Below, piece after piece: positions 6,932 through 52,731 of a stretch of DNA of 64,000 nucleotides. The notes below the pieces were generated by a model. That model was not told where the DNA came from. It did not search any database and saw only the letters and a program-made list of their open reading frames with translations. Each line of letters begins with the position of its first letter. Positions within the stretch are counted from its first letter, which is position 1. Source of the DNA: Psammoneis japonica (lineage: Eukaryota); NCBI GenBank assembly GCA_008632985.1, contig QPGO01000272.1, forward strand, positions 1 through 64,000. The letters are read 5' to 3'. Made by a program: the position numbers and the translations under genes.

Positions 6932-6942
6932 GACTGTTAATC
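6932..6942 (-). promoter_or_regulatory. Putative primer-binding site complementary to a tRNA-Asn(GUU) anticodon arm
   Basis: Minus-strand GATTAACAGTC directly abuts the 5' LTR. Its complement GACTGTTAATC has the form of a GUU anticodon stem-loop. Confidence 0.55.
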
Positions 6943-22424: not shown

Positions 22425-23599
22425 ATCGGAATTGTATTGTTGCAACCGCTAGTTAGGATAGGGAAATTGATACGAGTAAGAATCTACCGGTCTCTTGGTC
22501 TATGCAATCAACAAGAGCTTATGCCAGGAGTACGACTAATGGAGGAATCATAAGCCATTTAGCTCAGCACCACACAAAAACGAGACCACGACGTACAAAA
22601 GGGGTCGATTTGCGCAGGAGTAATGAGCGAGAACGTCTCGAGGAGGAAGCAGAGCAACGTAGACTCAAGCGGGAAGATTCAAGGAACTCGAAAGTCAAGT
22701 CTCCTGCTGATAACAAATACGACATCGTCGTGTAGAGCTCTCTGTGGTTACGTGAAATCCATCAAAACAAGATTGGAGTTAGTAGCTTTTTTCCTTGACA
22801 TGCTATATCTTGGACGAGACAACGAGCTGGGACACCATTCTGCAGTAAAGTAGATACCCGAAGACCCAGTGGATGTGGTCACACTGCAGATGTGGAGATT
22901 GCAAGGGAGACTTTTCATGCAGAATTGAATGTAAGTGGTCGCTCTTCTCAGGATGAGCTGCGCATCCGTGAAAAACGGTAGAAACGTAGCTGTGACACGT
23001 CGGCGCCCACAAACAAAAATGGTTCTAGTATAAGACTTGGTTTCAATGAGAGCGGTGTTGTACAACTCCATGTGTCTACGGAAATGACCAACTTGGGGGA
23101 GAAACTACCGATAAGCTTCACGATTTTGACGTCGACAGTCGAGCCAGACACTTTGCATCTGTAGATACAACAATAAGTGAGCCCGGTATCAAATTTCGAA
23201 GATCGATCCAACAGGACGCTCATTGAAGAAGGGCACGCCGCAGTCCGTCGATTAATTTCATTAGTGACATACTATGCGTGCTAAAACACCCCAGGTCACG
23301 CGACCGCACGTGGTCTCGGTCGCAGAGAAAGGGTTTCAAAAAGCTTCGCTCTCTACGGACACGACAGCTCGCTTTCTGTGGTTGGTTTATCCTTTCGGTG
23401 TGTTTTAAATCCATTCTATTGACAATGTGCGGCTTGGTAGACATAGTTGAGCAAAGAAAACTCCTTCATTATCAATTCAAAGATACAGAATATTGACTTT
23501 AGTTGCTACTTCTCAATATCCGGTAATACTCTCAAAGCCAGCATATCAAATACGAGTACGATTATTTTGCCACATCACGAAGACCAACACAGAGGCAAC

Positions 23600-24445
23600 G
23601 CAGAGTCAAAAATGCAATTATCGCTCACTTGGGAGTGTGCAAGGCTCAGAAGATGCCACCGTTGCGCTGTTGCTCCTCCAGATCGCCAGAGAGCTTGTGA
23701 TCCTCGCAGCAATACACGTGCAACTCATTATCTTCACCGATAAGGTTTTCGTCCCAGGCACAAAGGTGGTGGATTTGCTCTTTGCAATCCTCTTTGTGGC
23801 ATTCATGAGTTAGGTGTCCCGGAAACGGATGCCTGCAGTGCTCACGCAAGCAACAAAAAAAGGGAGGGTCTCACCCTCCGTTGGTGGTGCGTCTTCCTCC
23901 TCGTCACTTCTGGCCTGGTCCACCTCGCTTAGCAGCACGCCTTGGCGACGTAGTTCCGCCAAGATGCGGTCCTGCTGCGTCAAGATTCGTTCGATTCGTT
24001 CGCCTTGGCGTTCCTGTTCCGCCAAGACTCGTTCTCCTTGGCGTTCCTGTTCCACTAAGCTGCGTTTCTGCTGCGCCAAAATTCGTTCGGCCCAACCAGG
24101 AGTGCGGTCACCATTATCAGTGCTGGTTGGAGCGGCGTTGCCGTTGTAGGTGTCGCCGACGTTCATCTTTTCGGCTTGATATTGATTAATAGTAATGCTG
24201 ACCTCCTTTCCTTCACCAATACTAGTAGCCAGAAACGCAAGTAAATCATCTGAAGCGGCGCCCGTCAGTACGGTAGGAGCACCACCAGTGCGTTGTGCCG
24301 CCGTCGACTCGGAAGATGATGCCATCTGCGTGGAGTTCAATTGAGAAACGGAATACAAAATGTCACTCAGCACACGAGTGGATAGAACGCCACTAAGTAT
24401 CATACGGGGTGCATACTAAAGTGCAATATAACAGTATGTACTCAC
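23600..24445 (-). pseudogene. Coiled-coil repeat + Cys/His Zn-finger gene, copy 1 (no SUMO-like domain)
   Basis: ERILAEQERQG repeats; CCLREHCRH...HECHKEDCKEQIHHLCA...YCCEDH; GTGAGT donor at ~24445 and CAG acceptor at ~24327. Confidence 0.6.
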
Positions 24446-26349
24446 CGCCGCAACTGTAGTAACCCTCACTTCTCACTTGCTCTCTGGTATTGTATGAAAA
24501 TGACAGCAGCTAGTTGTCGTGCCGGTTGTGGCTGCCGCGGCGAGATTCAAGATTTTGCTGAAAGCGGAGTAACGATAGGAGTCTGCCCGTTGGCAAGGCA
24601 TGTCTCAAGCGCCACGTAGAGTTTGTATTGGGAACTACGTGAGTGTTCTGCAAAATGCAAACGGCTTTTTATGAACGTATGCATTACTTCTATTGTTCAT
24701 TTTTGAAATTAGACACAAAATAATCATATACCACGTTGAATACAATAAATAAGTTTGAATCGTGCGTGCGTCATCATACGATTTTGGCGCGCTCACAAAT
24801 TCATTTTACTGTAACACAGAATCGCAGATGCCCCGCCACCGCCTCGGCTTGGCTACAACCCCGATGACATGACACAGTGCACAGCTGCCGATTGGCCACA
24901 ACAATTCATGTGGTGCGCCGCTCAGGTGGCAGCTGGAAAACAGGGAACAAATGTCTGCAGCTCCAGCTCCATCCAATTTGTTCCCCAACACTGTGCAAAC
25001 AGACCACCTGCTGGCTGCAGATGCATCGGAGGCACAAGAGGAGCCAGCCAGAAACAAGAAAATGGAATTGAAGCTGCAACTCATGAGCTGAAGTCAGGCG
25101 ATGAGCAGAGAGCATGCATCTCAAGTGGGGGAGCATGCTGCAAATGCCAAAAACTGCAATGGTTGGCAGTGTCAGAAAAACAATCAACCAGAAAGCTGGC
25201 TGCCATCATCCAAATTGAACACAATGAAATGGCAGATGAAACACACAGAATGGCAAACATGCAACAAAATTGAAATTTTGAAAAGCAACAAAAACCAGCA
25301 GAGGAGGTGGGGCATGGCCGCAGAGCGGGGTCAAGAGCTCTGCATTGGCGATCCTCCAAAAGAGTGGAGTTCCTGAGGTGGGCCAAGAAGAAGGCCGTTG
25401 ACTTCCATCACAAGAGCCATCAGATGGACTGTGCACTGAAGCTCCAACACATGAAGGGAATGAGCGGGCCAATGTGAGAGTGCCTTCTCATCCCTGACAG
25501 GATGAAGGTGGGCTGACAAACTGTTGAGGTGACTTCACACATGTCGTCCTCTGTCTCCTTGGAGGTGACAAGCTGAACATCTCCACCTGCTGGTCCACAG
25601 ATGGAAAGCGGGGTGGTGGTTTCATCCCCACACCACAAACACAAATGAGCCGCTTGATGTTGCAATGCGCGGGCTTGATCAAGTCAAGACCACCACACTG
25701 GAGGTTCAAAGTGAAGAGTTTCTCCTCTCCACTGTCTCTGTTCTTCTGTGTGAGCCAGCACAACCACATCTTCTCATGGAAGAGACAGGAGCCAACAAAA
25801 TTTTGGCACCAGCAAGGCATTGGCAGTTTGGCCAGTCTTGATTTAGATGCCATCAAGACACCATGCACAAGCACCACCCTTGGAATCAGCAGCCAGACAA
25901 GCCAGGTGATTTTTTTTGTGCTAAAAAATCAGTTTGACACAGCAAAACTTTGTTTGCACACAAAATGTGTTGCCAGTTGTTCTCTTTTCTGACGATTTTT
26001 TGCTCCATTGGGATGTGTGTCACAAACTTCCTTGGCAGACTCAATGCTGATTGTGCGTCAGTCCACCCCTCACTGAGATTTCTTTGCAGGCAGAAAACCT
26101 GCCAAGCAGCATCGTGGAAAGACACACTCAGGTGACACCCAAGTGACGGCAACAATTTTGTCAAATGTCATCTGTTGTGTTGTGATTCATTCATCGCAAT
26201 GAAAAACATGGACAGCACAATGACAACAACATTGCAGCACTCACACGAGTCTTGTCAGTGTTGCAAAACATTCAAATTTGAACAAATCTGCGCTTTTGGT
26301 GGTGAAAAACCGTTCGTGAGTCAGAGACCACGCAAAAATTGTGCAATTC

Positions 26350-26685
26350 ATGCACAAGCTCCGCAGTGCAAGAATTCATTTGATGGATGTGTTTGTCTTC
26401 AACATCAAACAAACAGCCAAGTTTGTGGTGCAATTGTGCCTCATGCCTCTCAACGTTTTTGCAAGTGCGCCTGCCCCACGCAATTCTCAGGACATTGTAG
26501 AATTGTGCTGCAACAAAAAATGTCAAAAGTTGTTGGACGGATTGCTCAACAAGTGTGCCACAAAATGATGCAAAATGTTGCAAAAATCACGCAGAAATCT
26601 GCGTGCGCAACACACGACGCAATTCAAAAAACTGTCGATGTCACAGCTCAGCAGTGCGAGGTCCCACCTGGACCTGGAACGCATC
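26350..26685 (+). mobile_element. Terminal fragment of an element related to the 36-37 kb MITE, abutting the LRR pseudogene
   Basis: GAGGTCCCACCTGGACCTGGAACGCATC resembles the MITE end GAGCTCCCACCTGGGGCTGGAACGCGTC; left end not found. Confidence 0.5.
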
Positions 26686-27570
26686 GGGCCCTGAAGGTGC
26701 AAAGTTGTTCTTTGCAGCATTGGGCGCAGCACACACAAGCTGAGCATGTCCACTTTGGTGACAACCCAACCACAAATGAAGAAGCAGAGTGCATTGGAAA
26801 TGTGCTGCTGCAGAACACCATGGTCAAATGTCTCCATTTGCAATGTTGCTCCACCCAAGATGAGGGAGCCAAATTTTTGGCACAGAAGCTTGAAAACAAC
26901 ACATCCATTGAAAGAATTTATCTGCAGGCAAATGGTGCTGGGGTGAAGGTGCAAAAAAGCAATTGGGGAGATGTTTGCACAAAACAACAAACTTGCCAAC
27001 ATTTGGCTCTTGTCCAAAACTCTTTTGACAAAGTTGTTGAGGCCACTCTGGCAAAAGGCACAAAGCAGAATCTGGCTGTTCACACCCTTGCTTCTTGTGG
27101 AAAAATGTGGATCATGAGCTGACAGCTGAAATCAAAGAGTGCCAAAATGTTTTGCCAGTGGTGCGTGATTGGTTGGTGCCCAGTGGCATTTGGGCAGATG
27201 TGTTGGGGCAAGCTTGTGACAACCAAAACCCAATGTTCCACATTGTCAAAGAGAAATTGGAACTTTTCAAAGGTTGACATCAGCCCCTTTGGTGGAAACA
27301 GAATTGCTTTGTTTCTTTTTTCCAGCTCACATCCCATCCCATCCCCATGAGTTCTGAAACAGACTCTGGGCTGTGCTTTCAAGACTTTTCTGTGATGTCA
27401 GAATCAAATTTGTGCACGCACCCTGCCCACACAGCTTGGTTGCTCCCATCAATTCCTGGCTCTGCCATGTGAAGTGAAGTTGGTGTGCTCATGCATGAGA
27501 ACAACAGAACACTGAAAGATTGAGGGGACAGCTTGTTGAATGCTGGCTGCATGTCCAGTCTAAAATGACT
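26686..27570 (+). pseudogene. Degenerate duplicate of the 3' half and 3' flank of the LRR gene
   Basis: Colinear with 16872-17700 (GIWADVLGQACDNQNPMFHIVKEKLELFK); many TA->CA/TG and CG->TG/CA changes. Confidence 0.9.
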
Positions 27571-29449
27571 GTGCACATGCTGCCACCTGGAATGAGCAAC
27601 AAAGTGGTTTGCAGGTTTTTGGAGGATTGAGGTTGCTGCTCAGTTTTGTTGCTGGTGGTGAGACACAAATTGCTGCTTTGATTGTGCCAAAGGCAACAAT
27701 CTCCCACATGGTTTTGTTGGTCAGGGCCATTGCAGCATCTCCCATGTCTTGACACAAGGGTGAGGACTTGGAAGAAATGCATGTCAAATGTGCAAGAAAG
27801 CTGCAAAACAGTGGCAATGTTTTGCTTTGTGATGGAGCTGTTGTTGAATTGTGACAACTCTGTGGGAGTTGAGCTGTCAAAGAGTGGCCGGCTTGGACAA
27901 ATGTGAGCGCTTGCATTGAGGTTGTGGCAAAAAGGAACAGGTCAGAACTGACAGAATGGAAAGAGGAACACCTGACAAAGCGAGGAGTTGAAAATGTGCC
28001 TGGAGCAGTTGGAGCACTGTGGAATCCACAGGCAACATGCTCTCCAGTCAGCAGTGCCCAGCTTCGATGCCCTCTCATGCTCTCGGTTTTGCAAGCCCTG
28101 AAAGTTGCCAGGAAGCCAAATCTCTGCTCAAACTGTCACTTTCCATTGGATGGCTTCAGCATGCCGCCAGCAAACTTCTTGTCATCATCTGGCTGCAATT
28201 CCCACTCCTTTTGTCCCTTGTCTGCTTTGCAGCAGGGGTGCTCCAAGATGAGTCCGTTGCTGGCTGCTGGCTGCACAGAGAAACAATCCTCTGCATTGAA
28301 ATGCAGCCAGCTCATCCTGCTCCTTGTCTTCAGCCAAAAACTCACCCTGTGCTCATGAAAAATGATGTTCCAGCTGACGAAAGTGCCCAGCCAGTCTTTG
28401 GTTTTAACTCCGCCAAAGGCAAGGCCGTGTGTCGCTGGTCTTGAGTGACGATGAGCAAGAGCCAAGCTTTCTCCCCACACCATCACGTTCGCCATCATGT
28501 CTGCCATTTTGTTCAAAACACAGTCAATGAGTTTTCACTTGGTTGCTTTGTTGTTGTTTGGATCTGTGTCAACACACAGTCAGAGGAGCACCCCGGCTGG
28601 CTCTTTTGCCCCCCCCCCCTCCTGTGCCATTGACAACGGCGCGGCTGTGTGTGTCTCGTCTTTTTGACATTGCGCTTCAGAGGTTGAGCTGCTGGGTTCT
28701 CTGTGTGGCTGGCTTTGTCTGCACTGTCAACAGCAAACCTTGCAACAGAGCCAGGCCCAGCAGCGTGGGAGAGAGGAGCTGCCGGACGAGAGGGTGCCGC
28801 ATCGCTTGTTGTGAGGAGAGAAAAGGCTGAGCTGGCTTGAAGAACCCTTTTTAGATGACACTTTGGAAAAGTCAAGTGCAAATCCATCTTGAAAAGCAAA
28901 GCTGCATTCTTTCATTGCAAAGAAGCTGCCACGTGTGCCGGGATTGATGCTTTTCAGAGCATGTGGCCCTCTCCCTGCTGAGCTCCTCTCCACAGCAGCG
29001 CTCAAAAAAGCTGACTTTGTTGGCAAGGCAAAAGCTCTTGGACATGAAAGCGCAAAAAAAAGCACATTATCCTGTGAAAAGAAACCATCTGAGCAAAGCA
29101 AAAGAGCATGGACCATGGTGCGTTGATTTCGCTGGTTCGTCACGGTCGCGATTCGCGTCGTGCGTCGCACTCGGCCCTTCGGGGGTGTGCGCAAGCGCGC
29201 TCGAAAACGGTCGACGCATCGACTCACGATGGACGGACAGCGCGTGCGTGCGCGCCGACGGGACCAAAAATGAAAAATCCGCAATCCGCAAGCATGCGAA
29301 CACAGAGAGCACGGCAATGGCGGCCATGAATCAATCTGCATGGACCGTCATGTCTGTCATGCAAGTGCATGGAGAGCGAACGCAACGCCAAGCAACCAAC
29401 CAAAAGAGGTGGAAGTTAATCTAAAACTGAATGACTATCTCTCGACACC

Positions 29450-30886
29450 ATGGCGCGAGTAACGAACAAGACGAGGAGAAGTTGAGATTGGGCCATGCAT
29501 GCATGTTGCCAAACGTTCCGGAAACTTACCTGAAAAAAAACACCTTGTTTGTAGGGAAAGTGCCGTGTTTGTAGTTGGTGAACCTATCCGGTAACCTAAC
29601 CGGCCGATGGTGTGGTGGATGCCATTCTGCGGAAGGCGCAAGTTGGGGAGTGGGGAGCACAATGTCACGTGTCAGGATGTGAAACGAGAAGAGGAAGAGC
29701 ACTTACATCAGAAGTGGAAAAGAGCAAGAAGCAAGAACCATTTCCAGGCATTTCTTTTGCTCTAGCACTTTGCTTGTTGAATCCGAGAAACGCGAGAGTC
29801 ACAAGAGCAGCACCAAAAGGCAACTAGAAACAAGAATCGGACGACTACATGGTGGTACTCGAGAAACGCTATCAGGACACGGCTCGAAAGATTGAAGCGT
29901 GGCAAGAATTGGAAACCAAAGAGTGCGCTGCTGCCGCCGCTGAAGTTTTAGACGCTTCTACTCCAATCGATATTGAGGGAATCAAGCATCTTTCATCCAA
30001 GAATTTTTTGGTGTGGAAGAAGACACACGGTCGATGGAGGTGTTTATGAAGCTGCATCGCGGCGAGGCTTTGAAAAGGTTTTAGAAGAGCCCAACGACCG
30101 AGATACAGGGACTTGGTGTTCAGGAAGCATACAATGAAATGATTAGGAATGTCTATCTCAAAAAGCACGCCAAGGATATCGTCAATTACGTCAACGGAAA
30201 GTACAGCAAGACCCAAATCGATTCAAACGGGATGGAACTCCCATTACTAGAGAGTGATTCTCGCCGGATACTCTCTTGGTGGAGGGTTAGCTCAAGTTGC
30301 ACACCTTTGTACAAGAGCTCCGCCGGATCATCGTGGATCCTTTTGGACTAAACTTGTCGGAGCGTTGAAGGACGTCGATATCATAGCCATTACAATCTCT
30401 GCGCTCGTGACGACAGTCTTGGACAAGCCTTCCGAGGATACTTTAAGCTTTTTACATGACTCGATTGAACCTTATTTTCGCAACGTTGTGTTTAGTGCTG
30501 ACTTTGTACCAAGAGGATACTCGGATGTTGAGTTTATTGATGACTTTTTGAATGCCTTCCTGGACGATGCAACCAAGGCGTCGTCTGACGTTGCCGATCA
30601 GTTTGCCAGGTCCTTCGTCAATTTGCATTTGAGTTTGTTTAAAATGAGAGGAATGATGGAACAAGCCAAGATCTATCGACGTGTCGTTAAGCTCATTTAT
30701 TACGACAAACCGGTCTCTGTGCCGGTCTTGTATGTGGATAGTTCAAAAGAAGCGGATGAGAAGACGCGGTTTCGAAGCATAAGATATGGACCCAAAACCA
30801 AAGTGGCAGATATCGCGTTGGAAAATCACATTATGTTGGTTTCTGGACCAGGACTTGTAGCCAGTCCGGCTACGTCTGCGAAATAG
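29450..30886 (+). pseudogene. Class 3 lipase-like gene, copy 2 (internal deletion, frameshifts)
   Basis: ILAGYSLGGGLAQVAHL, NVVFSADFVPRGY, ENHIMLV; nearly identical to 55370-56000. Confidence 0.78.
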
Positions 30887-31456
30887 ATCAATGATAATGT
30901 TGCATCCGCTAGTAGTTAGTAGAGGGAGGTTGATACGAGTAAGAATGATAAAGGGTATTCATTTTACGTCTACCAGTCCCTTGGACAATACAATCAACAA
31001 GAGTTTATGCCAGGACTACGACTCATATAGGAACCGAATAAGACTTCGTGCCATTTAGCTCAGGGCCATACAAAAAACGAGATCACGACGTACAAATGGC
31101 ATCGATTTGCGCAGGAGAGTAATGAGTGACGACGTCTCGAGGAGGAAGCGGGACGACGGCAATGGCACGCCCAATGCCACTCCCGCCATCGATAATGCTA
31201 GCTCAGTTTCTGTGATCGGCTTATCCTTTCGGAGTGTTAAATCCATGCTATTGATAGTGTGCAGATTGGTAGACAGCGTAAGAAAATAGACTCATTTCGT
31301 TTTCAATTCAAAGATACAGAATGTTGACTTTAGTTGCTATTTCTCAAAATCAAGTAGTACTCTCGAACGCCAACATATCAAATACGAGTACGATTATTTT
31401 GCCACATCACGAAGACCAACACAGAGGCAACGCAGAGTCGAAAATGCAATTTTCGC

Positions 31457-34120
31457 TCACTTGGGAGTGTGCAAGGCGCAGAAGAGGTCCCCTTCACATT
31501 TGGGTCTGAATTTATTTTTGCAGCGACGATGCCCGTCCTTGATGTTCGCCGAGCATTGGATCGTCGCCGAGCCAGCTTGGGCATCTCGAGAACCTGCAGT
31601 GCCAGCAGCGTCGCCATCGCCACTCGGCTTCGCATCACCCTCAGAGGCACCATCATCTTCTCTATCGACGCTCACACATACCTCGTCGACGGGTCCACTA
31701 TCGACGTTCGTATTCTTGAGCAAAGCAATCACAGCAAAGACAAAAGCATTTGATTAGGGGGTGTAGTGTTTGAGAATGAGAAAAATATGAAAAGAAAACC
31801 ACATACCACATTGACGGGCGTGCTAGAATTCGAACTCGAACGGAGCTTCGGATCTACATCAAACGTAGGCTGCATTGCAGCGACAAGGCGACTGTCATTT
31901 CCAGCCACCGCTGCTGCTCCATAGACAACATCAGCAAGACTGTCTGCCTTTGGCTTGTTTTCGGAAGACTGCTGTTGCTCCTTGAGCTCACCGGAGATCT
32001 GGTGCTCCTTGCAGCAATGGGCGTGATTCTCATTTTGACCGAGTAGCTTTTCCTCAAGGGCGCAAAGGTGGTGGATTTGCGCTTTGCAACCCGTTGCGTG
32101 GCATTCGTGAGGGACATGGCCTGGACGATTATGCTTGCATTTGTCACGCAAGCAACAAAAAGGAGGGAGGGTCTTATCCTCCGTTGGTGGTGCGTCTTCG
32201 TCCTCGTCGTCCTCATCACTTGAAAGCTCAATGGGCGCGTCTTTGTAGACGCCTTTCTTCAATTCCACATCAATGACGAATCCGTCTTCCATGTCTAAGC
32301 TTCTTGGTGTTTCGGTTGGTTCGATTTCGCGTCCGTCATACTTGAAGATGAACTTGTCCACCTTAACATCAATTCGCCCTTTATTGTACCGGTGAAAAAC
32401 GCCTTGAAATTTGTCATCGGGATGAACCGCGATAGGGGTTTCCATCTCCTTCTCCTGAAAGACCAACGTAATCTCGTCGTATTCCAGCTTCGTCCGAGCG
32501 GCCGGTTCTTCGCGGACGCTGCTCCGATGGGGCACCGAGGGCTCCTCCTTGCGCCTGCCAAAACCACATGAGAAACAAGCAAGTCACAAAAATTAATGAC
32601 AGTAATCGCAAAATGACAAAAAGAAACAATCTCGGAAACTTACTGTGGAGAAGATACATCATTTTGGTACCGTGAAGTATCTTCACAGGGGTACGATGGT
32701 TGTAGCGACTGGCACTAGCAGGCGGCTTCTTGGTAGTCGCCTGTTTGTGCACCTCGCTTAGCTGCACGCCTTGGCGTTCCTGTTCCGCCAAGATTCGTTC
32801 GCCTTGGCGTCCCTGTTCTGCCAAGACTCGACCCTGTTCCGCCAAGATTCGTTCGCCTTGGCGACCCTGTTCCGCCACGATTCGTTTGCCTTGGAGTTCC
32901 TGTCCCTCCAAGATTCGTTCCACCCAACTAGGAGTGCGGTCACCACCGTCGGTGCTGGATGGAGCGGCGGTGCTACCGTCAGTACTGGATGGAGCGGCGG
33001 TGCTACCGTCAGTGCTGGATGGAGCGGCGTTGCGACCGTCAGTACTGGTTGGAGCGGCGTTGCCGTTGTAGGTGTCGCCGACGTTCATCTTTTCGGCTTG
33101 ATATTGATTAAAAGTGATGTTGACATTTCCTGTTTGGCTAACCCTGGCCATGGCAGACTCAAATACATTGTTTGAAGTGGCGCCCGTCAACACGGTAGGA
33201 GCACCAGTGCGTTGTACAGTCGCCGACTCGGAAGATGATACCGTCTGCGGGGAGTTTAATTGAGAAACGGGACACAAAATGAATAAGCCAGCAAACAAGT
33301 GGATAGAATGCCACAGAGCATCATACGGCGTGCATGCTAAAGTACGATATAACAATGTGTACTCACCGGCAACTCTTCATTGTCGGTACCAGGAAGCACA
33401 CGAGGTTCTTGTACCCGTGCCGGTACGTCCGTCCGCTGTGTAGCAGTTGCCGCGGGACGACGCTACAGATGAGGAACAAGTTGCAAGGAACGAAAACAAG
33501 GCGTTAGATAAAACAACAAGTTAGAAAAGCATAGAAACACACAGTGTCATGTCATTTGAACAAATTCACATGCGCGTGTGCTTGCTTCCTTCTCCCTGTC
33601 CTTGATGATGTTGACCTGTCTTTTCACTTCCTTCTTGCACTCACCGTTCAACCACTTTTCTGCAACTTGAGCTTGGATGTTGGCAACGTGAGTTTCAATG
33701 TGTGAGCCGAACTCTCTTTCACAATTGTTTTTTAATCCCGCGACATTGCCTTGATCGTCGCGAGGCATCCATTCCGCGGGGTCTTTCATGATGGCCTTCA
33801 TCAAGTCTTCGCAATCCCCGTCCTCGATGGATGAACACCTTCTCCATTTTAACACTGCCTTTTGTTGCTTTCTTTGCAACCACACGCTCATCACCATTCT
33901 CGTCCGTGTGAATAAAAGTGTGCCTCATGATCAGAGGCACAGCGATCGATGCTCGGAGTTCCGCACGCTTGTGTGCCGGCAATTTGAAAGCCCGCCTCAA
34001 CTGCTTTGCGTCGAGGCCAGTGTGAGCTGGATCACACCAGTTTTCCACGAGTGATGAGTCCTTTGCGAGCTTCTCGAGGTCCTCACATGAAAAGGAAGAG
34101 ACAAGTCCTCGTTTGACCAT
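31457..34120 (-). pseudogene. Multi-exon gene, copy 2: coiled-coil repeats, SUMO/ubiquitin-like domain, two Cys/His fingers; putative first exon TpA-mutated
   Basis: EITLVFQ...FIFKYDGREIEPTETPRSLDMEDGFVIDV (SUMO-like); CCLRDKCKH...CKAQIHHLCA; CSANIKDGHRRCKN...FCALH; 30-bp repeats encoding AAPSSTDGST. Introns inferred near 33464-33545 and 33244-33365. Confidence 0.65.
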
Positions 34121-34499
34121 GGTGGCAAGAAGAGTTCTTCACTTGCTTGGATGCTTTGTGAACAATGAGCACTCTGTTGTTGTGTCGTTTGCGGCTGTGC
34201 GGCCGCGGGATTTTGCTGGGCAAGTGCGCGGAGTGTGCAAGTCTTCTGCGTGAGAGACCAACGTGCGCACACGCTCGGAAACCAGCAACAGTTGTTTTTG
34301 AGGTTCCAAATGACTGCATGCTTCATTTTGGGTGACAAAGAGTGAATCATTTGTGGCAATGAACATGAGGAATGCATTTGAATCACATGCGCACGTCACC
34401 AAATTGTGTGTGCCGGCACAAAAACATTGCGGTTCAAACTCCATTCTTGTTTGCAGCTGGCTCTAGCCTGGCTGGAGCAGAGGCCCTCTCTAGAGTCAA

Positions 34500-35950
34500 G
34501 CCAGTGGAGAGAGCTCAAGGCTGCTGTGCTTGTTCTCCAGAAAACAATGTCTGGATGCACAGTTTTGCACTCTAGCGCGGTGGTGACCAAGGCACAGTCT
34601 CAGACAACCACTTCTCCAGACACTTCGATGCAATCCTCTTCTCTCTTTTGGCTGGCTCTCCAGCTCCTCATCACAGCCACAACAGCACAGCAGTTCATTT
34701 GTCCTGGCAATGATCAACAGCCCGGCACCAACCCAGGGAGATGTGCGCAGCCAGCCCTGAAGCGGTGCAGTCTCAGAAAAAGAAAGGTTGTGAAAGCCAC
34801 ATTTTCCTGCAGCATGACAACAATGAACAGGATGCCCTGATGCAGTCGCAGTGCTGCCCAACTTGACAGCTGCCTCCTGATCCAAGCAGCCCTTGAGAAT
34901 TGTCTCCTCCTTGATGTCACAGCCATTGTTGTTTCCATGCCTCCTTTTGTCCCAAGCCCTGCCCCTGATGACATGTGCTCCAACCAATGCATTTGGCATC
35001 ACGGGATCCACGGGAACACTTCCACAGAGCTCTTCATCCTTTTTGAACCCTTGAGAAACCCAGATCCAATGCAAGCCTATCTTGGAGTCCAGAGTCTCCT
35101 GACAGCTCTGAAATTAAGAGATTGGTTCAAGAGCACATCCTGTTTTTGGAGCATCAAGGGTTGGGGGAAGGACAAAAGGGAAATCTTTGCAAAAGGTTTG
35201 GCTGCATGGAGACTCGTTTTGCTTGATGCATCATCCCACTTGGTGGCTTCAATGACCTGTTCTACATTTTTGCAGCAAATGCTGGAAGATGTGGCACCCA
35301 AGTGACCAGCCTGCAGATCTTCTGGTCTCATGTCAATCAGCGCCTCATTCCCCAACTTAACAAGATGAGCCGTGCCCTGAGGACATCCAGAGAAGACAGA
35401 GTGGACAATGCATTGTCAGCATCATTGCCAGCCTTGAAGAAACCTTACAAGATCAGCAAAGATTTCCTGAGGTCAACTTGATTGAGTTGCTTCATGACAC
35501 TTTCACAAGCTGTCTTGACAGCAACAAGCTCCGCATGCAAGCGTGACATGTCTTGGTCAGCACTTTGCACAGAAAAAGCAGGGCCATCCAAGTCATCACT
35601 GTTTGCAACACCGTTCTGCAGAGGGTCTCGAGCAAGAGACAAGAGTGAGAGATCCCAGCTCCATTGATTTGGCCAAGATGCCTGAGACCCACCAAGGTCA
35701 TGGGCAAGAGCAGCAGTGTCAGCAGCAAAAAGCAGCTCTGCTGTGTGTTGGAGCAGCAAGCAGCCAGAGCAACAACAACAAAAAGAAAGGATGAAAAGAG
35801 CAGAAGTTTGCAGGCATGCAGCATCTGAGGTGGCCAGAAATGTCTCCAGCATGTGCCAGCGCAAGACAAGCAGCGGCAAAAGCAGGGTGAGAAAACAAAG
35901 GCTTGCTTTGATGAGGATGGCATGGGGGCAAAGTCAAGAAGCAGCACAGA
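34500..35950 (-). pseudogene. Degenerate coding region with a possible MIB/HERC2-like segment (~34770-35010)
   Basis: LVGAHVIRGRAWDKRRHGNNNG...AAGKCGFHNL resembles VGxRVxRGxDW...GxxGxYDL after restoring Tyr/Arg. Confidence 0.3.
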
Positions 35951-36061
35951 GAGAAGCAAGCCAACTTGGTGGAGTCTTGGCACCAGGTGGTGGCTCAAGA
36001 GTGCACGTCATTGTGCAAAGCTGCTGCTTGTGAGGCGCCAACCAAGAGCAGCAGCAGTGGT

Positions 36062-36458
36062 GACGCGCTCCAGACGCAGGTGGGAATCCGTGTGACATTG
36101 GGCCCGCAGAATTCTGCGTGCGAGCTCCGCAGCAAAATTGTGCAGCAATTAGAGTGTCAATGTTCGCCAACAGAAAATGAGGCAATTTTGCGAACGCACA
36201 AACTCGCACATGATTGAAGTGCATCATTTTTTACTTGGCCAGTTGCATTCTTCAGACATTGAAGAATGCAACTGGCGCACTGCTGTTTCCACAAATTCGT
36301 CATGTAAAACGTCTGGGGCTTCGCAAAACAGCGAGTCTGGACAATTTTTTTTTAAATGTTACACGTAGAAATGTGCGTGCAAAACATGCGACGGATGATA
36401 AAAATTGTTTGTGTCACACGTCAGTGCTGCGAGCTCCCACCTGGGGCTGGAACGCGTC
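36062..36458 (+). mobile_element. ~397-bp MITE, TpA-mutated copy
   Basis: TIRs GACGCG(C/T)TCCAG...CTGGAACGCGTC; 4-bp TSD TGGT (36058-36061, 36459-36462). Confidence 0.88.
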
Positions 36459-36817
36459 TGGTGCTGGCCAGCTCCCAGGAGCTGCCAGAGCTCAGCCGGT
36501 CTCTTGCATTGCCAACTCAGAACACTTTGTGGCACAGCTGAAAAGCAAAATGCTTTGATCATTGTGTGTGGCATGTCAGCAGGAAGGAAGTGGGTGAGAC
36601 AAGCTTGAAGTGCTGGGCGAGACAAGCTTGCTCTCTTCCACTGCAAAAAGAAGAAACAACAACAGAGAGACAGGAAGCAAGCAACAGCTGACAACAGCAA
36701 TTCTTTCTGCTTGGAATGCCATCACATTTTCTGTGTTCACTGTCATGGTTGCTTGCGTTAGACTGGCGACATTTGTGCCACAAGATCCATCTTCTCCATG
36801 CGCACTGCCGCATGACG

Positions 36818-37213
36818 GACGCGTTCCAGCCCCAGGTGGGAGCTCGTAGTACTGACGTGTGACAACAATAATTTTTATCATCCGTCGTATGTTTCGTACG
36901 TAGATTTCTACGTGTGATATTTAAAAAAAATTGTCCAGACTCGCTGTTTTGCGAAGCCCCAGACGTTTTATATAACAAGTTTATAGAAACAATAATGCGC
37001 CAGTTACATTCTTCAATGTCTGAAGAATGTAACTGGCTAAGTAAAAAATGATGTACTTCAATCATGTGCGAGTTTGTGCGTTCGCAAAATTGCCTCATTT
37101 TCTGTTGGCGATCATTGACATTTTAATTACCGTATAATTTTACTACGGAGCTCGCACGTAGAAGTCTACGGGCCCAATGTCACACGGATTCCCACCTACG
37201 TCTGGAACGCGTC
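36818..37213 (-). mobile_element. Same MITE family, opposite orientation, largely unmutated copy
   Basis: Reverse complement of 36062-36458; TIRs GACGCGTTCCAG...CTGGAACGCGTC; 4-bp TSD GACG (36814-36817, 37214-37217). Confidence 0.9.
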
Positions 37214-38626
37214 GACGGCGGTTTAAAGCTGTCTTTGACTGGCTTGACTAAAATGACAAAGGGCAATGTGTGATGACTCAAAAAAGTCAAGCAAGCAAAA
37301 ATTCGCCTCTGTGTGCGGCACAACCTTGTTCCTTGTTGCGTCCTCCGTTTTGTGCATGGCATGAAATTTGCACCGCACATGGGGCACAATTGCTCAGAAG
37401 ATGACCTTCCACATCAGCGTTGTCGTCATGCACGGCATCCCACACTGTTTGACGACCTGCCACTGAGATGGATCTTGCAGCCAAGACTCCAAGCCAAGCA
37501 AGGAGAGGACCTCCTTGACTGGACCGAGAGTCACTGTGCGAGTGCAGCAGCGAAACAGGTTGAAGGACGGATGGTGGACGAGACGAGTGGAAACGAGGCC
37601 AGCCCAAGGGATCCCTCATTGTCTGGCAGGACAGGAGACACCACGGTGCTGCCGAGGCATCTCCAAGGAGATGCCAATGATGAAAATTGAAAGGTGTCTT
37701 TCTCCTCCCTGTCAGTCCATGCTGAAAATCCCTGACGTGGTCTGCCTGTGCAGTCGGGAGTGTCTCGTGCATTCGCGCTGTTGTTGCCACGCCATCTTGG
37801 TGCCATGATCCTGTGGGGATGCACCTCCCACCTTTCCTCTGTCAATGCTGACTAAGGTCACACCATTTTTGGTGCCATGACATGTGGGCATTGCCCCAAA
37901 TCCTGATTGGGTCTGCTTGCAGTGGGGACCGCTTCGGCAGCCGGGGATTGTCTCGCACTCTGGCCTGCTTTGCCACACCTCTCAATGGTGCCTCTTTCTC
38001 ACAAGGAGTGCACCCTCATGCATGCGGCCCAAGTGCCATCAAAGTCCCACATGGGCAATGTCAGTGTGGCTTTTCAGTTCATTTGCTGCTCTTTTTTCAC
38101 AAGCGCCCATGTTGGCCCCTCTTTTCACCGCTTTGCGGCCCATGGTCATCACCTTTCCTCTCGGCGTGTCCAATTTTCCTCCTCTCGCTGAGACACAGCA
38201 TGTGTGGATGCGTGTGTTCACATGCTGCATTGCACTGGGAATGTCCCAGCCATCTGGCCAACACTGATCACACGTGTGCATGTGCATCCTCGGGAGGGTT
38301 TGGTCAAAATGAAAATTGCCACCATGTTTTCAGAGTTTTCTCATTTTTCCCGCGACATGCACGCAGTCACGATGATGAATGGTGATGGAAACCAACCCGT
38401 CACATGTGGGACCAAACACCAGATTCATCCTTGTCTTCATTCATTGGATGAGCACAGGAATCAGATGGGGTCACATTCTTGGAGCCGACATGACATCGGT
38501 CAATGCGCTTGTCGTTCCTGAGCAATTTCACATGCTGGTCACCTTCACTTCCCAGCGTGTTTGCTCTCACTTTTCCTTTTTAGAGATTGGACAAGCCTTT
38601 GCTTTCTGACATTCTGTTGTTCCACC

Positions 38627-40900
38627 ATGAGCCAAGCCCATGTTGCTGCCATCAACCGTGGCAAGCTGTCTGCTGCCAAGCAGTTCTCTGCCTCTTTGCC
38701 CTCCTCTGCGGGTGTGATCAAGTCCATCTCAACAACGGTCCACCGTGACACCCAGAAGGAGCTTCGTGACCATGTTTTCACAACTTTTTGCCTTTTTTTA
38801 CATGGTCTGTAATTGCAAGATCGCGGTTGTGGTGAAACCTTGCCCCAGGCAGCATGCTGATGGGAACTTGAGGTGGATTGGGAGCTTCTCGGATGCGATC
38901 GGTGAGGCTGTCCCAATGTCCGGCCATTGGACTCGTTTCCAAGGCCATGTCACCACTTCAGTTCCCCAAGGTGCCATGGATGCTTGCCACCTGCCCAAGT
39001 GCGAACCAAGCCCTGACAAAATTGGTGGTCCTGTCGGCAACGACGGCACCAGCAAACCAGCATTGATGGGTTGTCTCCATTTTGGGAATCCCACTGGACC
39101 GGCTGATCGCCCTGCCATTGTTGTGCTCCTGCTTTTCCCACCTGTCCCTGCAGGCATCACTCTTCTCATTGACTCTAACCCAGCAAACCACCCAGCATCC
39201 CTTTCTTCTAACTTTTTGCTCAGAGCGGTGTGGGCCAAGGGCATGGACTGGTTGCTGCAGCACAATGCTTCTGTCTCCGTTGCGGAAGGCGGCCCTGTGT
39301 TTGAGCAGACTGGCTTTGCTGTCGTTGATGAATTTGCAGGCCTGGAGGTCTGCAATCTTGATGATGATGATGTGCAGATGCTCCAACCTCTCATGGATTG
39401 GGTGCACTCTAGTCAAGGGCACGATGGATGCCTTTGCGAATGAGACCTGGAGGCAGCTTGGTGGTGACGAGCCTGCGCAGGCGCAATCTCCCGCCACTCC
39501 AGCCCAGGGTGCCAACTGTCTGGTCCCGAGCCATGCCATCAATGTCCCTTGCCAGGATTCAAAGAAGGAGTTGGATCAGAAGTTGAGGGCGCATGACATT
39601 GGTTGCCGCTGGTCTCCATGTGCGTTCTGAGCGACTGCTGGCACTGGTCCTGAGGACCTGCCCATGATCATTGTCAGCAAGCTTGCAGACCATGCAGCCA
39701 AGATCCTACAAGACACTTTGGCTGCCAACACCAACCAAGACCTTGCGGACCTTGTTAAGATGGCTGTTGTTGCATCGGCTCAGGGTGATGGCAGTCTTGA
39801 TGCTGGAGTGGACTGCAAGCACACGGTCGTCAACAAAGCCTGTGCAGATTGTTTCCGCGGCTTTGACGTGGCTGCGGAGCCTCCACAGCACAGCCAGGCT
39901 TCTTGCCACACAAAGCCATCAATCCTCCCCTTTCTTCCGCCAAAGACTGCATCATCTTCTTTTGCTGGCCTTGAGGAGGAAGGGAGGATGCTCCATCGGG
40001 TGCTTGCTGACGGATCGGACTGCAAGATTCCCGACGAGACGTGAAGGCGAGTGACCTTTACATCCAAGGGAGGATGGATGCCGCTGGCAATCTGTGGTCA
40101 GCACTGTGCAACTTTCATTGTGTCTTCAGTTGTTGGATCAAAGACTTTGACAATGCTGAGTCATGGAAATCGTTGGATGCACGTGCAAAGGTTCTTTGGT
40201 CGCATCCAGGCCTCACGTGGCTCAAGAATCTCAAGGACCCAAAACCAGTTGTTGCCAGCATCCTGGATGATTTCCAGACCATCATCAAGGTCCATTTTGA
40301 GATTGGGGACTCTCCATTGTACCGCCAGGCGGTTGAAACCGAGCACCCACTGAGCTGTCAGATTGCAAAGGATGCTCATGCTTTAGTTGAGTCCCTCATC
40401 GCGGATCTCAACACGGCGATCACACGGGGTGAGCCTCTCGCCTTTGCCGAAGCATCTGCATTGGCCCTTGTCCCTCTGGGTGGCTCTGTGTTCCCCCCTC
40501 CTGGAGAAACAAAGAATGCTGAGACCAAGTCTGGTCAACCTCCTAAGAAGAAGCCGCGTGCAGAGGACACTGCTGACAGTGCGGCCAAGCTCTGCAAGGC
40601 AATGGGCATGCTCACTTTTTTGGGAATGAGGCGCCCTCCTGCCTGTCCAGTTTTTTATAAGAAGAATGGATCAGACCAGGAAGAACGTGTCTGCATGCAT
40701 TTCTGCACCAAGGGACACTGCTGCAAGTTCCCCAACTGTCCAAAACCACACCCATTGCAGGCATTCAAGATTCTGGAGGCAAAGCGAGAAGCCTTTTGCC
40801 AATTCATCAGGGATGCTCAGGGTCTCAAATTTGTCCCTGGCAAGGGCCCAGATGGTGCGTCCCAAACAAATTCGAAGCCTCTGGTCTTCTGCACTGTCCC
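38627..40900 (+). pseudogene. Putative gag-like ORF1 of the YR element
   Basis: Position upstream of RT; broken frames ending in CMHFCTKGHCCKFPNCPKPH (CCCH-like finger). Confidence 0.5.
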
Positions 40901-45345: not shown

Positions 45346-46674
45346 TTTGCTTTCTTGCTGTTTGCACACATCTGCTCCACATTTGTCCTCTCTGTGCAGC
45401 GTCATTTGCCACACTGTCGTCTTTCTGCATCGGACATTCCAAAATTGAAATTTCAAAATTTCATTCTGACTGGCACATGAGTTGAAAATGCGCATGATCA
45501 AGAGGAACATTTGTTTGTCCCTCATGTCCAAAAATGATCATTTTTTTCCGGTTGGCTCTGCCTCCAATGACACGGGCACTGTTGCAATGCTTGCAGCATT
45601 CCGCGTCAGCAGCATGGTCTGTGGTGCTCAGTGAAAAAGGGAGCCAATTGCTTGGCACCGGCAATTCCAAGCCTGGCCCCACACCCCAATTGCTCCAACT
45701 GCTGGTGACTGTTTTCATCGTGGCAAATGCTGTGAGTCTGCACACGGCCATGAACATCGTGCACGCACTGGACGACCTCCATGTGATTGCATCGATCGAC
45801 AAGAGACACTTCCACTGTGCCACGTCATCAGAGTTCAGACAGCCAAGGCGGAGGTGGGGAATCCATGGGATTCTCGTAGCCAAGACTCCAAGCCAAGCAA
45901 GAAGAGGACCTCCCTGACTGGACTGAGAGTTGCCACGTGAGCGCAGTGGCAAAATGGTCTGGCACAGGATGGGAGACACCATGGTGCTGTCGAGGCATCT
46001 CCAAGGAGATGCCAACGATGAAAATTGAAAAACCCACCTCCCCCTCCCCTGCACACAGTGAAAAAGGGAGCCAGTTGCTTGGCACTGGCGATTCCAAGCC
46101 TGGTCCCATGCCCTGGTTGCCCCACCTGTGCCAGCGACTGTCTTCATCGTGGCAAACACTGTGAGTCCACACATGGCTGTGAACATTGCACATGCACCAG
46201 ACAACCTCCATGTGATTGCATTGATCAACAAGAGACGCTTCCACTGTGCCATGTCATCGGAGTGCAGACAGCCGAGGCAGAGGCAGGGAATCCGTGGGAT
46301 TCGGATCGCCGGATCGACTCCTTCACAACCCATTAAAATGTTGGTCCATCGAGTCAAAAAGTTGATCCGTGGCCTTCGTCGGACTGCACCCCTGAGCAGG
46401 AGGGTTCTTGTGTCAATTGGTTGGGTGTGCAGTGCTTGGTTGATTGCATGCAATGGTTCGAATTGTCTGTGCAGCGCTTGCACGCTCGCAATGCAGACAC
46501 TCGGATTTTGTGGGTGTGTTTCAGTCGCTTTGAGATTTCCGAGAACCCCCCCACACCGCGACAACTCTGCGCACGGTCAAACCATTTCAACTTTTCGCAA
46601 GCTGCCGCCAATGCGGCCAACAACAGAGAAGCACTGTTTGAAGTCCCTTTTCCCTCATCTTTTACAAGACAACC

Positions 46675-49600
46675 ATGCCTCCAAAGAAGAACAGCCACAA
46701 GAAGTTGCACCAGCCTGAAAAAGAGCAAATCAAAAGGCAAGTCGCTCGCCAGAAGCGAAAGAGAGAATCAACTGTAGCTGAGCGTGAGAAGGAAAGGAAG
46801 AACTCGAAAAGGCGGTCAAGCAGGACTTCTTGTGCCACTGGAGCATCTCTTGTTGCCACATCCCTTACAAACACCTTTCGCAAAATGAGAGACAATGGGA
46901 AAAGCAACCTGTCGTCTGTGATGAGAAAGATTCATCACAATTTTGACGTGCATTGGAATCAACAGCAACGGCAAGATGGAAGAACCAAGCCAAGGAGATC
47001 TTCTCATCTGTCGAATGAAACCAAGGACACGCAAGAGTCTAAAGACAGGAGTGGCACCCCTGCAGTCCCCACTTCATGGCGAAGAATGGTCACAGAAGAG
47101 ATCATGATGCTGCCGGTCAAAACACCCGTCCTCATCAAGGTTCCAAACAATCATCCATCTTTGAAGGTTGCGAATTCAGCCATCAGGTCGACTGCAGATC
47201 ATGACAGTGCCAAAGTTGCATTTCGTGGTCGTGGAAGCTCCTGCCACGAGCTGTCTGGAGCAGTGCGAACAAATCCTCAACAAGGTTCAGCAGTCAAGCG
47301 GCAAATGCCACCGCAGCAGATGAATGAATGTGTTGCAAAAGGAGAAGGACTGACACTTTCCTTTCTGGGGATTCCGCATGACGTTCAACTCAAATGGACG
47401 GACTTTCATGCATTTGGTGACGACCCCATTGTCAGACTGGAGCTGTGGTGTGATGCCAACAATCCCACCCTGGTGAGCTTTTTTGAAAGCTTTAAAAATG
47501 AGAATGCCAACAGACGCGACGCTCTGCACAGTGCACTCGCTGAGGAACTAGACGGCAACCGACTGTTGCTGTCACTGTTGTCTCTTGACAAAGTTGGAGC
47601 CGACCATCATGCTGCAGAAAGTGACCTTAGAAAGCTACAAGCAAAAGAAGAATTTCTTCGAGCATCGCTGGCAGGTCCCGATGTGATGAAAGTGCCAGAC
47701 AAGGTGAACGAAACATGCAGGTCTGCTTTGGAGCAAAGCCATGGAAACCATGTTGTGCTGTCAGAACCCATCTTGTCACTCTCTCAAGTGGACAATCTGG
47801 CATCATACCTTCGGACAACAGCTGCTGCTGCTCACGCCGCAATTTCACGACTTCTTGGGTTCGACATCCGGAAGAACAATGCTCGCAAGCAGCTGCGATG
47901 TGGAGCAGAGCAAAGAGCTGTTCTTTGTTGCTTCCTTGCAATGTGCCGTGTCTGCAACAATTCAAGTGCAGTGTTCTGGGCAGCAATCCGTCATGCCGCT
48001 GGACTTGCTAGATCAGAAAGTGATGCTGTCAATCGATTCGAGTCATTCTTTGGAACGTCAATCACAAAGACCACTTGGGAGCAGCGAACAAAGGAGTTTG
48101 CAGACTCGCATGCTTCACGATTGTCCGCGATGCTCCGGGAATCCAATCGTTGCATGTTTGCATTCGACAACTCCCAGGCGGGAGAGAAGAAGAAGGATCA
48201 GCATGAAGGTAGCTCAAGCTCATTCTGGGAGGCAACGACAGAGGTTCTGAAGAAAATCCATGCACACATGGGACCCGAGTGCCTGGATCAGATGCATGAC
48301 AGACCGGAGCTTGCACATGTCGATCAAAGCATCCCGTCACCACTGGGCATGCCTCCCCATGAGAAAGTCAATGGAAGTGACGAGATGGTTGCGGTTCTAA
48401 CGGATCCAGCAAAGTGGGAGGGATGCGAAGAATGAATGAGCGCTGTCGACAGCTCGGGGAATCGGATGGAAGCCCACATTCGATTGCTGCGAACTGCCCA
48501 GATTCTGACCTCGATCCATCAAAAGGGCTCGCTTGAAGACAAAGAATGGGCTCACATGCCAAAGGAGCATCTCGAAAGTGAAGAGCGCCGAGCAATCGTC
48601 AAGTCATTCCATCAGATGCGAGTGGGGTTGCTGTCTGCAGCAGCGAAGTTTCAGCAAAGGACGGTCTGTTCGTGGAATGAGTTCGAAGAACTGGCCGATG
48701 CGTTTGCCATTCTGCCGCTCTCGTCACGAATCGAGGGAACAACATTTGGGGCCGGCACCATTTTGCTTGACTTTCTTGTTCTTGCAGGTCTTCTCATCAA
48801 GGAAAAGGACACCACGACAGGGCATGTCTCATGGAAGGCGGCACCAAACACAGAAGAAAAGTGGGTCTATGTTGTTGGTGATTCACTGAGTTTGGACAAT
48901 CTGACGGCCTTCATCAAAATGCTGCACAAGTCAAAAGTGACGTTTGATGAGTGCCACTGCCAGATCCTTGAATTCGAGCGAGCCCTGGCAAGGATTGTTC
49001 CCGCACCTGGGGATTTGCATGTTGAGTTTCACACGCTTGGTCCAATGTTCCGATTGTTCTGTGGAGGATTCTTGCAACCGACACAGACCACTCTTGGGTG
49101 GAAGCGAATGAAACTCAAAGCAGCTGAGTGTTTCCAGCTTGCGGACAAGCTTTTCATGCTCGTCATGGGCGAAGTAGAGCGTTTGATGCTAGACACCTTC
49201 GAGGTGGAAAGGGGGGCCACGCTGGTGTCAGTGCTGTCACGTCTTGGGACGGAGAGATTTGCCATGTGCTGCACTCATCAATTTGATGCATGGTTGAAAC
49301 ATGTGCAGGAAACGTCGGATGATGAGATTTGGAAATTGCTGATTAACTTTGCTCACCTTGGATGGCAGTGCAAAATGCTTTCATCAGCACTTCGTTGTGG
49401 CAACAGCTGCACGACAGAACACCAGATTCAGTGGTGGGCACCAGTGTGGCTCAATCTTGGCAAGCATCGGCACTTCAAGCTGAGTCCATCACAAGCCGAG
49501 ACGCTGCACCGAGACCTGCCATTCGCCCTCCTGCAAGAAGTGCACACCAACCGAACGGCCAGGTTTTACGTGGGATGTGATAGAGACGGTCAGTCCACTC

Positions 49601-52600: not shown

Positions 52601-52731
52601 ACGGCAGATACGAAGTGTTCGTGAGAGCAGGATGTGATGACAATGCACAATTTCACTTCAATGATGACTCACATTGGAACAGAATCACAACGGCACAATG
52701 TCCCGCGTTGAACCAATTCTGGGTCAAATGA
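46675..52731 (+). pseudogene. Giant single-frame ORF (one in-frame TGA at 48433-48435): DUF6589-like putative DDE transposase followed by a RecQ-like SF2 helicase
   Basis: FAFDNSQ, YVVGDSLS, PAPGDLHVEFH, DVVEMVN. Helicase motifs AFQRDAV, QPTSGGKS, VVPLLSV, FDEVH, FGLAFRRDF, MTAT, AGAGLD, QELRRAGR, CGNACPHC. Confidence 0.7.

Follow-up and report, generated by a model that had tools for sequence, protein, structure and literature searches.

Probable TpA-directed hypermutation of mobile and repeated DNA as the source of the difference between two neighboring transposon copies in Psammoneis japonica

Two copies of one small transposon lie close together in a contig of Psammoneis japonica, and the question raised by this locus is why one of them has lost most of its TA dinucleotides while the other has kept them. 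The window analyzed is the whole 64,000-nucleotide stretch from position 1 to 64,000 of contig QPGO01000272.1 (assembly GCA_008632985.1). The left copy (36062-36458, + strand, 397 bp) is TA-depleted and the right copy (36818-37213, - strand, 396 bp) is near-pristine, as judged by their pairwise alignment and TA counts. From its sequence we read the element as a high-copy, noncoding DNA transposon resembling a miniature inverted-repeat transposable element (MITE) and bounded by terminal inverted repeats (TIRs). In all likelihood the difference within the pair is explained by hypermutation of TpA to TpG or CpA, acting at the DNA level on mobile and repeated DNA. Sequence comparisons establish the direction of the change, its specificity for TpA, its 3' context, its action after integration, and, within the window, its confinement to kilobase-scale domains that bear transposons.

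The alignment of the two copies spans 397 columns at 89.9% identity, and 30 of the 40 differing columns have G or C in the left copy and A or T in the right copy. The right copy contains 30 TA dinucleotides (observed/expected ratio, o/e, 0.90), against 7 in the left copy (o/e 0.26); at the 30 TA sites of the former, the left copy reads TG 15 times, CA nine times, and TA six times, i.e., 24 of 30 have changed. Taking the right copy as ancestor, the differences resolve into 24 transitions at TA sites, six other A>G or T>C changes, four G>A or C>T changes, five transversions, and one indel. The CpG counts of the two copies are nearly equal, at 26 and 25. Every pair of left and right strings quoted in an earlier sequence-only reading of this DNA is found in the alignment. 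The TIRs are 24 nt long and 88% complementary inside each copy, and a search with the TIR pattern produced five matches in the window versus none in 100 shuffles. Four of them mark the ends of the two copies; the fifth, at 26662-26685, belongs to a third related element, of which a degenerate end without TA is present (26588-26685, + strand) that has 75-77% identity over 98 bp and a TIR with two mismatches.

Each copy has its own target-site duplication, TGGT on either side of the left copy (36058-36061 and 36459-36462) and GACG on either side of the right copy (36814-36817 and 37214-37217), and for that reason independent insertion of two members of one TIR transposon family is supported. Direct reading of the flanks thus bears out the sequence-only reading, which had proposed independent insertions with these duplications, and its inverted orientation and separation of about 360 bp hold as well. 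The spacer of 359 bp (36459-36817) is part of a TA-depleted host repeat and has a single TA. The right copy is, as had been claimed, a TA-rich element inside TA-poor DNA: 72 of the 128 bins of 500 bp in the window have a TA o/e below 0.2. It forms a TA island whose edges match the element ends, the outermost TA lying at most 35 bp from them, and its surroundings are TA-depleted repeat DNA.

The wider family is visible in the contigs of a public sequencing run, X1, in which 2010 pieces match the right copy at a likeness of at least 80%, 307 of them at 99% or more. Loose ends of other element copies accumulate exactly at 36818 and 37213. One X1 contig connects 36813 to 37214, skipping 400 bases (396 + 4), at 80% likeness and with its intervening content unseen; such a joint is what an empty site would give, whether the contig represents another allele or a paralogous copy of the host repeat. 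Searches for further copies with two TA-free cores of the element gave no matches in metagenome contigs or in genome contigs.

Which of the two copies is derived? The pair alone is symmetric and fits a loss of TA to TG or CA in the left copy and a gain of TA from CA or TG in the right copy equally well. An origin of the second kind, resembling fungal repeat-induced point mutation (RIP), would make the TA-poor left copy ancestral and have the right copy acquire TA through C-to-T changes at CpA and TpG. It draws on that symmetry, 30 of the 40 differences being CA or TG against TA, and also on the palindrome at 36238-36276, whose two arms differ concordantly, as would follow automatically from CA/TG>TA. 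The family members in X1 point the other way. Contigs were collapsed in this comparison, pieces of at least 80% likeness were used, and the individual sites described are among the best-supported places listed, with 35 rows beyond them. The places at which X1 departs from the right copy total 71 (A>G 23, T>C 18, G>A 10, C>T 6, transversions 14). All 17 of the A>G or T>C places listed inside the element fall in a TpA of the right copy, which retains TA at all 17 of these polymorphic places. Family copies hold both outcomes at the same TA site: CA makes up 55% and TG 32% of X1 depth at 36850/51, and CA 43% and TG 29% at 37054/55. Because single steps connect CA and TG only via TA, TA is the parsimonious ancestral state at sites with both outcomes. 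The host repeat behaves similarly, with TG at 36746/47 near the right copy and CA in seven X1 contigs, and the X1 copies of the spacer's host repeat vary from the window copy at TA-derived sites.

A second outgroup is provided by three paralogous units, A (20866-24565), B (29314-33374), and C (55263-60593), which are 72-97% alike. A and B are TA-normal, and in C the TA-poor sequence is limited to the distal part (58463-60593, + strand; its unmutated paralogues are 23366-24565 in A and 31156-33374 in B). Changes were polarised at columns where A and B agree. On the branch to C, A>G occurred at 15 of 39 TA, none of 80 AA, two of 68 GA, and eight of 86 CA; on the TA-normal branches A and B it occurred at none of 10 TA. 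The trio thus puts the change on the TA-poor branch, and AT>GC changes outside TA are at background. CpG>TpG changes number 11 of 61 on branch C versus three of 43 and three of 53 on the other branches. The edge of the TA-depleted domain crosses unit C at ~58.2 kb, the rest of C and the whole of A and B being unmutated. Unit C also carries, at 59100-60250, an insertion that is absent from A and B, has many short palindromic GACAAAATTTGTCG-like repeats and no TA, and is probably another small foldback element. A further TA-less paralogue (26686-27572, + strand, o/e 0.00-0.02) corresponds to the TA-normal segment 16871-17702, the 3' part and downstream region of a leucine-rich repeat (LRR) gene. 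Over the longer alignment of 26136-27572 with 16020-17702, one copy of the LRR gene has been pseudogenised by TA>TG/CA and the other is normal.

Proteins supply a third outgroup. Tyrosine is encoded by TAY, cysteine by TGY, and histidine by CAY (Y, pyrimidine). A Copia-like open reading frame (ORF) of 1928 codons (334-6120, - strand; RVT_2, E 2.7e-21) has a TA o/e of ~0.15. Its homologues numbered 1183 proteins at E ≤0.001, of which 120 were listed, 90 of these being 1800-2000 residues long, and the first 15 of the 90 were aligned. In 45 columns tyrosine is present in at least 80% of the 15 homologues; at these the Copia-like ORF has tyrosine in six, cysteine in 22, histidine in 13, and phenylalanine in four, and it retains every other conserved residue type at 76-100%. 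Its tyrosine content is 0.7%, against 2.86-4.95% in the 120 homologues listed and 2.4% in the adjacent MFS host gene. The same replacement is seen in an unrelated giant frame (46642-52731, + strand), which lies in a TA-less block and is made up of 597 + 1431 codons separated by a single TGA. The frame is akin to a Helicase_C protein bearing a DEVH-type box; a search of 5.8 billion proteins returned a single homologue for it (P0241, 50% identity), and at the 16 tyrosine columns of P0241 the part of the frame at 48436-52731 has cysteine in eight, histidine in four, phenylalanine in two, lysine and valine in one each, and tyrosine in none. The giant frame may be a gene of an undescribed mobile element.

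The fourth outgroup test comes from the two long terminal repeats (LTRs) of the Copia-like element, each of 276 bp (3' LTR 111-386 and 5' LTR 6943-7218, both - strand). They differ at 17 positions, 14 of which lie in nine of 15 ancestral TA sites and three elsewhere. Six of the 15 sites are retained in both LTRs, four are lost in one, and five are lost in both; those lost in both always oppose CA to TG (5/5). Counted by site and lineage, 14 of 30 TA have changed compared with three changes in the other 246 columns; counted by base, 14 of 60 TA bases compared with three of 492 other bases, an excess that is arithmetically ~40-fold. Because the LTRs were identical at integration and now differ mostly at TA, the mutations arose after integration and on DNA. 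A second, fully TA-depleted fragment from this Copia-like family, comprising an ORF end and an LTR, is present at 62712-63195 with a TA o/e of 0.06; its identity to 109-607 and 6943-7120 is 70-79%.

The four tests together, from the transposon family, the paralogue trio, the proteins, and the LTR pair, support TA as the ancestral state on sequence grounds. The sequence-only reading had held that the pair itself fixes the direction, with TA ancestral; the ancestral state stands, and the sufficiency of the pair does not, an outgroup being required. It had also named the outcome that would favor RIP, a family consensus matching the TA-poor copy, and the family variants, the trio, and the tyrosine columns all run counter to it. 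A RIP-like origin is contradicted further by the opposite composition of the mutated blocks (TA o/e 0.0-0.2, CA/TG 1.5-2.1) and by duplicates up to 97% alike that are unmutated. We regard it as refuted by the family variants, the trio, the tyrosine columns, and the LTR pair, and as scarcely credible for the right copy.

The LTRs bear equally on the possibility that transposon transcripts were edited at the RNA level by an ADAR- or ADAT-like enzyme and the changes then fixed by reverse transcription. Such editing would agree with the preference of ADARs, cited in a recent preprint (10.64898/2026.01.13.699255), for an A preceded by U, and with the stronger depletion of the Copia-like ORF (o/e ~0.15) than of its LTRs (o/e 0.41-0.54). 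It is at odds with LTRs that were identical at integration and now differ at nine of 15 TA sites, with the nature of the MITE-like element, a DNA transposon with TIRs and target-site duplications, and with the change in paralogues that are not transposons. The inverted pair could make a long hairpin RNA, yet one arm only has changed. RNA editing is accordingly a very improbable source of the pattern.

Across the window the TA o/e is 0.29, and that of CA and TG is 1.44. The 500-bp bins fall into two modes, with 56 of the 128 at a TA o/e below 0.1, 16 at 0.1-0.2, and a second mode at 0.4-0.7, i.e., 72 depleted, 42 normal, and 14 intermediate bins. Depleted blocks occupy ~1-6, 7-10, 18-20, 25-29, 34-53, and 58-64 kb and carry the Copia-like retrotransposon, the MITE-like copies, and the helicase-related giant frame. 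Normal blocks (TA o/e 0.4-0.9) carry uninterrupted frames for an MFS transporter, an LRR protein, a DUF6824 protein, and a SUMO-like protein. Within the 64-kb window, TA depletion is limited to the blocks of mobile DNA, and the adjoining gene blocks are normal.

It might be supposed that no directed mutagenesis is involved and that TA was lost through selection (against cutting by a TA-specific nuclease or against unstable UA-rich RNA), neutral drift, or biased gene conversion. TA is indeed mildly low even in the normal blocks (o/e 0.4-0.9), as it is in many genomes. Replacement of 35 of 45 conserved tyrosines by cysteine or histidine would harm the protein instead of adapting it, and the LTR changes are concentrated in TA (14 of 30 site-lineages versus three in the other 246 columns). 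AT>GC changes outside TA remain at background in the trio, and adjacent host genes are normal, as the tyrosine content of the MFS gene (2.4%) indicates. We consider an undirected origin exceedingly improbable. The same low standing belongs to a technical artefact in which a base modification of heterochromatic TA was systematically miscalled in the assembly. The sequencing platforms of the assembly and of X1 are not on record, which leaves some room for it. X1, however, contains 74% of the 31-mers sampled from 33000-39000, where most of the DNA is TA-less, and its contigs carry TA, TG, and CA variants, though X1 may be the source data. Two further runs, X2 and X3, contained next to none of the stretch's sampled 31-mers, and no RNA run containing the stretch was listed.

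What kind of chemistry attacks TpA? The bases that follow the dinucleotide on the edited strand are informative. When five polarised comparisons are pooled, change is found at 36 of 57 TAC, 25 of 56 TAT, 10 of 39 TAG, and eight of 48 TAA, so TAY exceeds TAR (R, purine; odds ratio 4.5, Fisher p 2.3e-6); within the TIR element by itself, 15 of 20 TAC have changed. The sequences thereby demonstrate an edited-strand preference of TAC > TAT > TAG > TAA. The TA that survive agree with a TAY preference, their ratio of depleted to normal DNA being 0.0 for ATAT, 0.02 for ATAC/GTAT, and 0.21 both for TTAA and for CTAA/TTAG. A minor class of AA>AG changes had been taken in the sequence-only reading as a hint of a WA signature (W, A or T), and the counts speak against this: if the right copy is taken as ancestral, AA>AG and TT>CT together amount to five over 77 AA + TT versus 24 of 30 TA, none of 80 AA contexts changed in the trio, and AAN is not depleted in mutated blocks (ratio 0.86-0.98). 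A processive single-strand deaminase would be expected to coordinate changes by strand; of the series compared, only the LTR pair suggests this (five CA to one TG versus one CA to seven TG, p 0.026).

On either strand, the A of 5'-TA undergoes an A:T to G:C transition, and we propose that a TadA/ADAT-like adenine deaminase might act on DNA in silenced domains, the resulting inosine being read as G. Such an enzyme is a candidate agent that we favor by a slender margin over an even chance, on the strength of the footprint's motif. In the tRNA substrates of TadA and ADAT, U precedes the edited A, and in tRNA-Arg(ACG) it is followed by C; the substrate context of TadA is U33-A34-C35. The observed order TAC > TAT mirrors this context. 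A TadA-derived editor whose context is YAC appears in a review (PMC13109818), and the authors of a study of the alga Bigelowiella natans favor an ADAT2-like deaminase there on the basis of sequence and model only (10.64898/2026.01.13.699255). All three considerations weigh against the principal alternative chemistry, in which the thymine of TpA is modified (e.g., by TET/JBP-type oxidation) and then miscopied as C, so that the motif would be RTA rather than TAY. Because T>C and A>G are complementary, the family, trio, pair, and context data fit thymine chemistry equally well. In dinoflagellate DNA, hydroxymethyluracil is enriched at TpA, which counts in its favor. No result of the present analysis supports such a modification in the organism at hand, and we judge thymine chemistry to be unlikely, although it carries more weight than any other alternative to adenine deamination considered here.

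Three layers can be distinguished at the locus: the near TA-free host repeat, the left copy minus 24 of its 30 TA, and the right copy without detectable loss. We think it reasonably likely that hypermutation struck repeatedly, or went on continuously, and that insertion of the right copy followed the last bout at this place. The 307 of 2010 pieces that are at least 99% like the right copy fit a recently active subfamily. A less probable course of events, though one to be taken seriously, is that the right copy was simply not targeted, since foreign inserts in B. natans are, according to the preprint, partly hit and partly spared. A protected promoter had been the other suggestion for the right copy; no gene or Pfam family was found beside it among 30 frames scanned, so nothing supports a promoter, although a blank result of this kind is not proof. 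A broader claim is more tentative and falls a little short of an even chance: that we are seeing a natural, DNA-acting genome defense in a diatom-like alga, deaminating adenine in 5'-TAY-3', aimed at silenced domains of mobile DNA and not at duplications, and repeated until recently.

Several observations weigh against this account of hypermutation, its agent, and its chronology. Paralogous units up to 97% alike are unmutated, which leaves the choice of target unexplained; duplicated units of 534-998 bp with 87-97% identity have a TA o/e of 0.43-0.74, and because such highly alike units are unmutated, duplication alone is not the trigger. The leader of the Copia-like element, ~800 bp at 6100-6940, has normal or high TA (5-9 per 100 bp), in contrast to the depleted ORF and LTRs; it may be a younger nested insertion, and no TIR was found when one was sought around it. 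The candidate enzyme is read from the footprint motif, and thymine-side chemistry would leave an identical footprint. The left copy could have inserted already mutated, change in situ having been demonstrated for the LTRs and the paralogues. Two or more substitutions are private to the right copy (among them 36979 and 37164), which is therefore not brand new. The strand coordination of the LTRs is absent from six other series (p 0.22-1.0), with p 0.22 for the left copy and 0.40-1.0 for the five paralogue series and the Copia tyrosine series. Finally, X1 is possibly the source data of the assembly and thus would not be independent support.

The closest known system is that of B. natans, in which TpA hypermutation of integrated nucleocytoplasmic large DNA virus (NCLDV) and virophage DNA was reported from mutation-accumulation lines (Mettrop et al., bioRxiv 10.64898/2026.01.13.699255). 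According to that preprint, 231 of 302 new mutations fell in two integrated viral regions; nearly all of them were A>G or T>C, and every GC-biased one was on TpA. They arose in some lines only, at ~1000 times the background rate. Elsewhere in that genome the same preprint describes a long-term footprint, namely clusters and coding sequences in which TpA is depleted and CpA + TpG enriched, with an excess of reverse-transcriptase and DDE domains; it names an ADAT2-like candidate enzyme from sequence and models (10.64898/2026.01.13.699255). As far as the preprint describes the B. natans process, the likeness to the present locus lies in a change that is almost only A>G/T>C on TpA, yields TpG/CpA, affects regions of foreign origin, and is not tied to repeat number. 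Mutations were measured there, whereas a fossil footprint is seen here. The targets here are a MITE-like DNA transposon, a Copia-like element, a helicase-bearing repeat, and pseudogenised paralogues, and TA o/e is 0.0-0.2 in 72 of 128 bins, compared with a Rho of 0.45 in the NCLDV region of B. natans. The 3' preference TAC > TAT > TAG > TAA is a further difference, and the words "trinucleotide," "downstream," and "diatom" are absent from the main text of the preprint. The literature we were able to consult yielded no account of diatoms or other stramenopiles undergoing TA>TG/CA hypermutation, this preprint (10.64898/2026.01.13.699255) being the sole relevant paper.

Other systems share particular features. 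Like RIP in Neurospora and further fungi, the process is a context-specific transition mutagenesis of transposons with sharp-edged compositional domains in which nested young copies are spared. RIP, however, creates TpA out of CpA, the reverse of the TpA loss seen here, and it mutates duplicates longer than ~0.4 kb and above 80% identity, whereas here kilobase-long duplicates up to 97% alike are unmutated. With the APOBEC3 and ADAR proteins of animals it shares clustered, context-dependent transitions of the deaminase type on foreign or mobile nucleic acid, and with ADAR the U or T before the edited A. APOBEC changes C rather than A, and ADAR acts on RNA, in contrast to the changes found here in a DNA transposon, in LTRs after integration, and in nonmobile paralogues. 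TadA, ADAT2-ADAT3, and TadA-derived editors have the A>I chemistry that we propose, and the TAC > TAT motif resembles the YAC context mentioned for one such editor.

Laboratory adenine base editors were evolved from a tRNA enzyme. To our knowledge, no natural TadA or ADAT is established as a genome-wide DNA mutator, and we know of no natural enzyme established as deaminating adenine in genomic DNA. The window is probably a second and more saturated case of TpA hypermutation, acting on transposons and in a second major lineage. A second genome from another lineage would suggest a widespread mechanism rather than a curiosity. If our reading is correct, then with the rhizarian case added, TpA editing of invading DNA would emerge as a form of eukaryotic immunity that is both old and widespread, and such genomes would be a source of natural DNA adenine deaminases. 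The locus is a strong lead toward an adenine deaminase that naturally acts on DNA, or toward an equivalent chemistry. A high-copy transposon is present in neighboring pristine and mutated copies, the signature is near saturation over most of the repeat DNA, and internal calibration is on hand in the family consensus, the LTR pairs, and the nested insertions. The motif TAC > TAT > TAG > TAA offers a sharper criterion for candidate enzymes.

There is also a warning for annotation, in that spurious, very long frames and tyrosine-less pseudoproteins mislead in TA-depleted DNA. The window has 79 open frames of at least 150 codons. Because depleted DNA is almost devoid of TAA and TAG, frames stay open over long distances there by default, and an open frame in such DNA is therefore no evidence of a live gene. 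No Pfam family was found in 30 other frames of the depleted blocks, those beside the pair included. Among the frames in normal blocks, that of the MFS transporter is matched by no protein at more than 60% identity along its length and has one named relative, from the diatom Odontella aurita, and a protein-cluster search with it returned generic MFS clusters only. The genes here are poor in introns, protein matches of 100% are absent, and DUF6824 is a domain linked to diatoms.

CpG has been lost alongside TA at 18-20, 25-29, and 61-64 kb (CG o/e 0.1-0.5). It has not been lost in other depleted blocks, the CG o/e being 0.83-1.0 at 1-6 kb and 1.35 at 59-60 kb, and CpG loss is absent from the left copy and the Copia-like element. 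Because CpG loss joins TA loss in some blocks only and spares these two elements, the two kinds of decay are separable, and TA loss seems to be the faster.

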